Shown here piece after piece: positions 3,988-4,236 of a stretch of DNA of 4,276 bases. Under the pieces are notes generated by a model that was not told where the DNA came from, did no database searches, and saw only the letters and a list, made by a program, of their open reading frames with translations. Every line of letters starts with the position of its first letter. Positions within the stretch are counted from its first letter, which is position 1. The position numbers and the translations under genes were made by a program. This stretch comes from a virus (taxonomy: Duplodnaviria; Heunggongvirae; Uroviricota; Caudoviricetes): positions 1 to 4,276 of the IMG/VR virus record IMGVR_UViG_2690316086_000016; one strand, 5' to 3'.

Positions 3988-4019
3988 TATACCAATTGGT
4001 ATACCAAGTTTATACCAAG
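3988..4019 (+). repeat. Three direct copies of TATACCAA(G) at about 12-bp spacing; candidate integrase arm-type binding sites or operator repeats
   Basis: TATACCAA at 3988-3995, GTATACCAAG at 3999-4008 and TATACCAAG at 4011-4019, all in the same orientation, next to the tRNA-fragment att core. Confidence 0.4.
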
Positions 4020-4021
4020 AG

Positions 4022-4055
4022 CCAAAAAACAAAGGGGCTACCATTTGGTAACCCC
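4022..4055 (-). terminator. Terminator-like hairpin immediately 3' of the tRNA-Ser fragment (minus strand)
   Basis: Stem GGGGCTACC (4034-4042) / GGTAACCCC (4047-4055) with loop ATTT; 8 of 9 positions pair, with one C/A mismatch as written that becomes a G-U wobble in the minus-strand transcript. On the minus strand it is followed by TTTGTTTTTTGG (complement of 4022-4033). Confidence 0.5.
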
Positions 4056-4064
4056 TTGATTATT

Positions 4065-4124
4065 TGGCGGAAGCGCAGAGATTCGAACTCTGGAACCCTT
4101 TCGGGTCGCCGGTTTTCAAGACCG
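4065..4124 (-). other. 3'-terminal 60 nt of tRNA-Ser(UGA) (serT-like) without the 5' half; phage attachment-site core
   Basis: Reverse complement of 4065-4124 is CGGTCTTGAAAACCGGCGACCCGAAAGGGTTCCAGAGTTCGAATCTCTGCGCTTCCGCCA: anticodon stem-loop with UGA anticodon, long variable arm (class II, Ser), T-arm GGTTCGAATC and acceptor 3' strand ending CCA. It matches E. coli serT as I recall it. The complementary acceptor 5' strand (GGAAGCG) and D-arm are absent from 4125-4276, so this is a fragment and not a gene. Confidence 0.75.
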
Positions 4125-4226
4125 AAGAAAAACAAATAAAAATCAGTGCAATACGTGAAATTGCTGAAAAGTTAATCAAATTTAACACCAAGAAAAATCA
4201 AGGTATTAGGAAGTTGCTCATAGCTA

Positions 4227-4236
4227 GTATACCAAG
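4227..4236 (+). repeat. Fourth copy of GTATACCAAG on the other side of the att core
   Basis: Exact GTATACCAAG at 4227-4236, same orientation as the three copies at 3988-4019, about 100 bp beyond the truncated edge of the tRNA fragment. Confidence 0.35.

Follow-up and report, generated by a model that had tools for sequence, protein, structure and literature searches.

Candidate arm-type integrase sites flanking a serT-derived att core in lambdoid prophages of Escherichia coli

The att region and its surroundings

The stretch of DNA analysed here, called the window throughout, spans 4,276 nucleotides of tailed-phage sequence and carries an attachment (att) region near its right end. To the left of att lie lambdoid tail-fibre genes, tccP2 and an espV fragment that is annotated without its N-terminus and corresponds to a 132-aa ORF (3578-3976, minus strand). 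To the right follow the gene of a tyrosine integrase of 339 aa, WP_001299351.1, and then a DUF4224 (Xis-like) gene. The att part is identical to NC_013353.1 (E. coli O103:H2 strain 12009), and none of the complete genomes compared with the window matches it end to end. In addition, the tccP2 ORF (438 aa; 1816-3132, minus strand) contains at least seven near-identical 141-bp repeats (47 aa, proline-rich), with four more such repeats than in NC_013353.1. Together, the extra repeats and the lack of an end-to-end match indicate that repeat number differs between strains or assemblies. The features of the att region are given below, with offsets counted from the anticodon centre at window position 4117; the tRNA lies on the minus strand.

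3988..3995, plus strand: candidate arm-type site 1, outermost in the cluster, exact TATACCAA; offset -129
3996..4003, minus strand: inverted TATACCAA within the cluster, palindromic with site 1, found in the window/Evi lineage only; offset -121
4000..4008, plus strand: candidate arm-type site 2, TATACCAAG; offset -117
4011..4019, plus strand: candidate arm-type site 3, TATACCAAG; offset -106
4022..4057, minus strand: predicted phage-borne intrinsic terminator for the reconstituted serT, with stem-loop 4032-4057 and T-tail 4022-4031, from a terminator scan
4049-4061, minus strand: IHF-consensus match (pattern WATCARNNNNTTR) overlapping the terminator; offset -68
4065..4124, minus strand: 3' 60 nt of the tRNA-Ser(UGA) gene serT, the att core in the broad sense, identical to attB
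4109..4124, minus strand: anticodon stem-loop remnant, with loop 4114-4120 and anticodon 4116-4118
4196..4208, plus strand: IHF-consensus match AATCAAGGTATTA between core and far-arm site; offset +79
4228..4236, plus strand: candidate far-arm site, int-proximal, TATACCAAG, putative counterpart of lambda P1; offset +111
4266..4276, minus strand: last codons and stop (4266-4268) of integrase WP_001299351.1, from the NC_013353.1 annotation; gene of the next tandem prophage

A search of the window with ARAGORN found no intact tRNA. Positions 4065-4124 are 100% identical to serT in all genomes compared, and this identity to attB stops at 4124, inside the 5' anticodon stem. In approximately 100 genomes, the sequence to the left of 4124 is followed by intact serT and then hyaA, as in an ordinary attR, which fits restoration of the tRNA gene on integration. 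Homology to the host, represented by the empty serT locus of K-12, runs from 4124 down to approximately 4020 only, and the repeat cluster begins exactly where it stops. This limit of host homology indicates that the phage carries its own diverged copy of the serT terminator. Judged by its sequence, the phage-borne copy (4032-4057), which lies outside the identity segment, looks functional. Its stem reads GGGGCTACC/GGTAACCCC in the phage versus GGGGTTAGC/GCTAACCCC in the K-12 host, and still folds on the minus strand with one G-T pair counted. We infer that the 7-bp crossover region and the core-type sites lie within the anticodon stem-loop at 4109-4124.

Further elements were noted within the same region. 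A perfect 7+7 palindrome, CCAGAAA-TT-TTTCTGG, lies at 4243-4258 between the far-arm site and the int stop, and is kept with small changes in Evi, O157, E41 and OkiPb01714; it is not a canonical terminator, as no T-run follows it. An Rfam match of the window to MicX was sub-threshold (19.7 bits against a gathering score of 75) and was taken as chance. A second far-arm site considered at 4184-4191 (AACACCAA, 2 mismatches) was dropped, being conserved neither in OkiPb01714 nor in L015.

The order of elements around the core identifies the type of att site. Besides the attR forms described above, the attL of many genomes consists of the host terminator, the core, and then the same right arm and int. 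In E. coli O103:H2 strain 129, the arrangement of the window is found between two prophages that both encode this integrase, starting from yccA/serT, and the free phage Evi shows the same arm-core-arm-int order as its attP. Taken together, these forms identify the window, on sequence grounds, as the internal junction of head-to-tail lambdoid prophages at serT, equivalent to the Evi attP. From left to right, the junction consists of the left prophage's int-distal arm, the core derived from serT and, belonging to the right prophage, the int-proximal arm. The earlier note had described the arrangement as that of an attP, which holds in so far as the site is attP-equivalent; its actual context is a tandem-prophage junction, neither the attP of a phage nor a simple attL or attR. 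Tandem lambda polylysogens have the same P-core-P' junction between head-to-tail prophages with the same Int, as in strain 129, and by this analogy the internal junction would function as an attP within the chromosome.

In strain 129 the junction belongs to a plain tandem at yccA/serT. Strain 12009 carries, within 2,322,000-2,436,900 of NC_013353.1, at least three lambdoid prophages head-to-tail with two identical serT-type junctions, the window being junction 1. Unlike lambda polylysogens, this array of at least three members is rearranged, and the end of its left prophage lies at serU, with another integrase that is frameshifted. At this end of the array, at serU/mtfA, the frameshifted integrase is 606R7-like and is accompanied by its own cluster of three TATTCCAAG copies. 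The left prophage of strain 12009 is probably a serT/serU hybrid that arose by recombination or inversion between serT and serU prophages. The cargo beside the att module is also swapped: the window has the espV fragment, and junction 2 of strain 12009 has espK together with part of a tail-fibre-assembly gene, the sequence shared with the window starting there only at approximately 3972. The cargo breakpoint (window 3970-3987) lies about 15-20 bp outside the first arm repeat and marks the outer edge of the attP module, at approximately -145. Elsewhere, viral contig L087 contains a tRNA-like 3' fragment, GGTTCAAATCCTCTCGCGCAGACTA, at about +170 to +230, past the far arm, hinting at a further att remnant, either nested or adjacent.

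Copies, spacing and specificity of the repeat word

Five exact copies of TATACCAA occur within 3988-4235, and none elsewhere in the window. Four are direct, on the plus strand, with starts at 3988, 4000, 4011 and 4228. In 10-mer form, these plus-strand copies read ATATACCAAT (3987-3996), GTATACCAAG (3999-4008), TTATACCAAG (4010-4019) and again GTATACCAAG (4227-4236), so that the 8-mer TATACCAA is the invariant word among them. The earlier note had listed these four same-orientation 10-mers correctly and had missed the fifth copy, which is inverted and lies at 3996-4003; together with site 1 it forms a perfect 16-bp palindrome, TATACCAA/TTGGTATA, at 3988-4003. Three copies are indeed clustered, at measured start-to-start distances of 12 and then 11 bp instead of the uniform 12 bp that had been proposed. 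The single copy placed about 100 bp past the other edge of the core starts, in agreement with this, 103 bp to the right of 4124, where the tRNA-derived core has its right edge.

The word proved to be specific to att sites. With five exact 8-mers observed against a shuffle mean of 0.10, none of 200 dinucleotide-preserving shuffles of the window reached five. The 9-mer TATACCAAG occurs three times in the 99.4 kb covering two prophages of strain 12009, where 0.64-0.76 copies would be expected, and all three copies are those described here; for the 8-mer TATACCAA, five of the eight copies in the same 99.4 kb are found at this site. In 50 kb of strain 129, TATACCAAG is present in four copies, every one at attL or at this junction. 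All seven 9-mers found in approximately 150 kb of two E. coli genomes thus lie at att sites, and the motif is not common in this sequence context, so that the frequent occurrence which the earlier note had named as grounds for refutation was not observed.

Related att sites and the cognate integrase

Approximately 15 independent att regions were compared, obtained through a pattern scan of viral contigs and through tblastn of the integrase against phage genomes. The pattern scan, with TATACCAANNNTATACCAA, returned mostly unrelated matches (giant-virus sequences and AT-rich tandem repeats; contigs L008, L070, L085 and L125) and was filtered by tRNA context. An integrase-based scan of the viral contigs gave 80 loci, nearly all ending 3 bp past the int stop and hence armless; only L143, L170, L188, L205 and L206 among them had flanking sequence beyond int. 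A peptide-pattern scan of genome contigs for the integrase yielded two loci only, as its patterns were too specific. The sites that could be laid out are given below, with target tRNA gene, word, cluster offsets, inner site and outer site in this order.

Window, Evi, L015, L143: serT; TATACCAA; -129/-130, -117/-118, -106/-107, inverted copy -121/-122; inner none; outer +110/+111 direct
L087: serT; TATACCAA; about -133, -120, -109; inner +47 inverted; outer +111 direct
Chris1 (Int 60% identical): serU; TATACCAA; -132, -119, -108; inner +47 inverted; outer +111 direct
KpF5, ST64B (Int 50%): serU; TTTTCTCA; -131, -118, -108; inner +47 inverted; outer +110 direct
BUCT708 (Int 54%): serT; TATTCTAA; -132, -119, -108; inner +47 inverted; outer a 2-mismatch copy at +110
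606R7 and the serU-side int of strain 12009: serU; TATTCCAAG; -131, -118, -108 (cluster arm only)
mEp390: tRNA-Leu; ATGGCGAA; four direct copies; inner +46 inverted; outer +111 direct
ZF40: tRNA-Leu; ATATTAGG; two direct copies; inner +48 inverted; outer +108 direct
Fostie: tRNA-Leu; TATTATGA; two direct copies; inner +47 inverted; outer not found

A fixed layout around the anticodon loop emerges from this comparison, with two to four direct repeats in tandem on the side of the tRNA 3' end and, on the other side, one inverted copy near +47 and one direct copy near +111, in relatives down to 42% identity. This five-site geometry recurs in approximately 10 diverged attPs that target serT, serU or tRNA-Leu genes, and the arm sites are equidistant from the anticodon loop whichever tRNA is used. 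Chris1, ST64B, KpF5, BUCT708, mEp390 and ZF40, with integrases 42-60% identical, share with the window the anticodon-loop target and the arm-site coordinates; Chris1 and L087 also share its word, TATACCAA. Furthermore, the 3' part of the tRNA is phage-borne in the serU, serT and leuZ relatives, as it is in the window. These three genes are known integration sites of prophages in Shiga toxin-producing E. coli (STEC) (PMC8767318). The comparison with other serT-targeting att regions that the earlier note had suggested shows this layout in the serT relatives and also at serU and tRNA-Leu sites.

Individual positions show the same constancy. The position of site 1 is also occupied in Evi, L015 and L143, and is filled by their own words in L087, Chris1, KpF5 and ST64B. 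The far-arm site at +110/+111 is found in Evi, L015, L143, E. albertii, L087 and Chris1 as well, its TATACCAAG form is present in the attL of strains 129 and O157, and its position is kept with other words in KpF5, ST64B, mEp390 and ZF40. Although the DNA between cluster and tRNA is unrelated between serT and serU sites, the distance remains constant. Ungapped comparison of the window, L087 and Chris1 gives only 48% identity for the far arms, with the word among the longest shared blocks; the AAAATCA block at +79 is one of two conserved blocks in these otherwise 48%-identical arms. Matches to the IHF pattern WATCARNNNNTTR, which are consensus matches only, occur at +79 in the window, Evi, L015, BUCT708 and mEp390 and at -68 in the window; the pattern has no match in L087, Chris1, KpF5 or ST64B. 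Coordinates that stay fixed while the word changes with integrase lineage are what is predicted of arm-type sites.

The lineage of the window departs from this family in several respects. Relatives at or below 60% identity, together with the serT contigs L087, L089 and L118, follow lambda in having the cluster next to the int stop or overlapping it, whereas in the window, Evi and L015 the entire att module is inverted relative to int, with the cluster int-distal and the int end at +150. An inner inverted site near +47, with at most one mismatch, was not found in the window, Evi, L015 or L143, unlike in the relatives; the position appears decayed, with TTGCTG followed by AAAAG here and by GTATATCC in Chris1. 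The window therefore lacks the full five-site lambda topology with its P2-like inner site, and has the inverted copy at -121 instead. This inverted cluster copy is missing in the L087/Chris1 type (first spacer GTGAA versus TTGG). Since Evi is a free phage with an intact attP, excision evidently works despite the missing +47 site.

The integrase itself aligns with lambda Int over residues 1-319 (E=5.6e-20; approximately 28% identity) and with the isolated arm-binding domain 1kjk over residues 1-59 (E=0.048). The Pfam Phage_integrase family matches residues 168-323 with a score of 33.5, only just above the threshold of 27.1. By homology, the cognate enzyme is a tyrosine recombinase with an N-terminal arm-DNA-binding domain. 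Heterobivalent integrases of the lambda type require arm-type sites. In residues 289-295 of WP_001299351.1, the second catalytic arginine (lambda R311, HxxR) is replaced by lysine, in the context F-H-D-I-K-A-K-G, and this lysine is invariant in 10 of 10 aligned members of the clade.

Identity of the N-domain to that of the window Int amounts to 54% in Chris1, which has the same word, 41-46% in 606R7 and BUCT708, whose words differ by 1-2 nt, and 30% in KpF5 and ST64B, whose word is unrelated. Across the same comparisons, the remainder of the integrase stays at a steady 53-61%. Seven words were found across nine integrase lineages, and the word follows N-domain divergence, a correlation that is confounded by phylogeny. 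Among relatives whose cluster is int-proximal, the final codons of int and its stop share bases with the first arm repeat, so that a change of the arm word alters the C-terminus of Int. For instance, int ends in TAT ACC AAG TGA (Y-T-K-stop) in Chris1, TAT TCC AAG TAA (Y-S-K-stop) in 606R7 and AAT TCT AAG TGA (N-S-K-stop) in BUCT708.

Readings of the repeats and their meaning

Lambda provides the reference for interpreting these sites. Its attP contains the arm-type sites P1, P2 and P'1-P'3 and the IHF sites H1, H2 and H', and is bound by a heterobivalent Int. In the lambda sequence, used as a control, P1 lies at -144 (direct), P2 at -114 (inverted) and P'1-3 at +52, +62 and +73 (direct), with the int stop at +78. 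The family described here resembles this plan: one arm bears three direct sites in tandem, the other an inverted site nearer the core and a direct site farther out; the integrase is homologous, including its arm-binding N-domain; and the int stop lies about 80-150 bp from the core. Matches to the IHF consensus (consensus only) lie between arm and core sites in part of the family. The family differs from lambda in the word, TATACCAAG here and C/AAGTCACTAT in lambda, and in the core, which is a tRNA anticodon stem-loop in place of the intergenic gal-bio attB of lambda. The distances also differ, with the cluster at 100-133 bp and the far sites at 47 and 111 bp, compared to 52-82 and 114/144 bp in lambda. 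Furthermore, Int is only about 28% identical and has Lys in place of Arg311, and the lineage of the window has an int-distal cluster and no P2 equivalent.

We consider it very likely that the four direct TATACCAA(G) copies are arm-type sites for the N-domain of WP_001299351.1, in line with the arm-type sites of an attP that the earlier note had proposed. The word, which differs from the core sequence, is repeated on both arms (-129, -117, -106 and +111) within approximately 150 bp of the presumed crossover, as expected of a lambda-type attP, and the reading is further supported by the specificity of the word to att sites, the homology of the integrase, the geometry that recurs in about 10 attPs, the switching of words and the agreement with lambda topology. 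Against it stand the missing +47 site, the int-distal position of the cluster, the confounding of the link between word and N-domain by phylogeny, and IHF matches that are to the consensus only and fail in several relatives. In the literature, no description was found of arm-type sites for ST64B, for serT/serU phages or for this integrase clade, nor of the word itself. Literature matches to TATACCAAG were unrelated lambda att-engineering or primer sequences, and the mEp390 record has a 'putative attP' annotation only.

Other binding proteins can also be envisaged for the repeats. Excisionase sites, too, typically come as direct repeats set in tandem 11-13 bp apart on one arm; int is accompanied by a DUF4224 gene, and the window and Chris1 have similar Xis proteins as well as the same word. 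The repeats could on this basis be binding sites of the excisionase or RDF (the DUF4224 protein encoded upstream of int) and not of Int, which we regard as unlikely, because both arms contain the word, direct as well as inverted and at constant positions, in the manner of lambda Int sites and unlike a one-arm Xis array. Moreover, the word does not track Xis similarity: the Xis proteins of BUCT708 and ZF40 are 65% identical, their words are unrelated, and their Int N-domains are 37% identical. The excisionase may nonetheless be a second reader of the same word.

It is very unlikely that the words are bound by something else, for example a nucleoid protein of the host or a phage-encoded regulator of int expression, with a purely regulatory link to att. 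An effect on int expression is conceivable in relatives whose int-proximal cluster runs into the int stop with its first repeat; a host factor, however, would not change its word at least six times among phages of the same hosts, and the constant spacing from the anticodon loop, seen on either side, points to a recombination complex. Chance repetition or a non-functional relic can be given scarcely any credence. The region is AT-rich, and a 10-mer search that allows 2 mismatches is only modestly enriched (7 matches against 2.6 expected; 3 of 200 shuffles reach 7), but the shuffles never matched the five exact 8-mers, the 9-mers of both genomes are confined to att sites, and the layout is kept across diverged phages. 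Finally, an operator array for the 132-aa ORF, which the earlier note had offered as an additional or alternative role and for which proximity speaks (the cluster lies 12-40 bp upstream of the ATG), can be practically dismissed, as the ORF is an espV remnant without N-terminus, a truncated pseudogene with no Pfam domain, no sigma-70-like promoter was found in 3900-4276, and the cluster abuts unrelated DNA in L015, L113, L116, L087 and Chris1 and the tail-fibre-assembly fragment in junction 2 of strain 12009.

If the repeats are arm-type sites, the mechanism would follow that of lambda. By analogy, each Int protomer would place its N-domain on an arm word and its C-terminal domains on a core-type site in the serT anticodon stem, while bending proteins at the IHF-like sites at +79 and -68 would fold the arms back, and strand exchange would take place in the 7-nt anticodon loop. 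On this view, P'1-P'3 of lambda would have their counterpart in the three-copy cluster, and P1 in the copy at +111. The anticodon stem is the same in serT and serU, whose loops are distinguished by a single base; this would account for the same word class at both tRNAs. More tentatively, the window/Evi/L015 lineage could build its recombination complexes on a rewired set of arm sites, with the module flipped, the +47 site lost and the inverted copy at 3996-4003, which overlaps sites 1 and 2, gained; we hold this to be possible and rather doubtful. If the inverted copy replaces P2 in excision, this lineage would present a natural lambda-type excisive intasome with all excision-specific arm contacts on one arm.

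Altogether, the att site of the window is very probably an ordinary, previously undescribed example in an E. coli prophage that carries virulence genes, one that extends the textbook mechanism and does not change it. Prophages of this kind carry the type III effectors TccP2, EspV and EspK in Shiga-toxin-producing E. coli, often in tandem arrays, and the integrase-side arm is present in approximately 750 of 5,426 complete E. coli genomes. Together with their geometry, the arm sites and the core define a minimal attP, at about window 3972-4265, which helps to delimit prophages, predict excisable junctions and explain rearrangements among serT and serU prophages. Fixed coordinates combined with a lineage-specific 8-bp word provide a comparative data set on how arm specificity changes in lambda-type integrases. 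The clade may offer one constant geometry in which at least seven 8-bp words are interchangeable, a natural set of potentially orthogonal integrase/attP pairs that could serve genome engineering.
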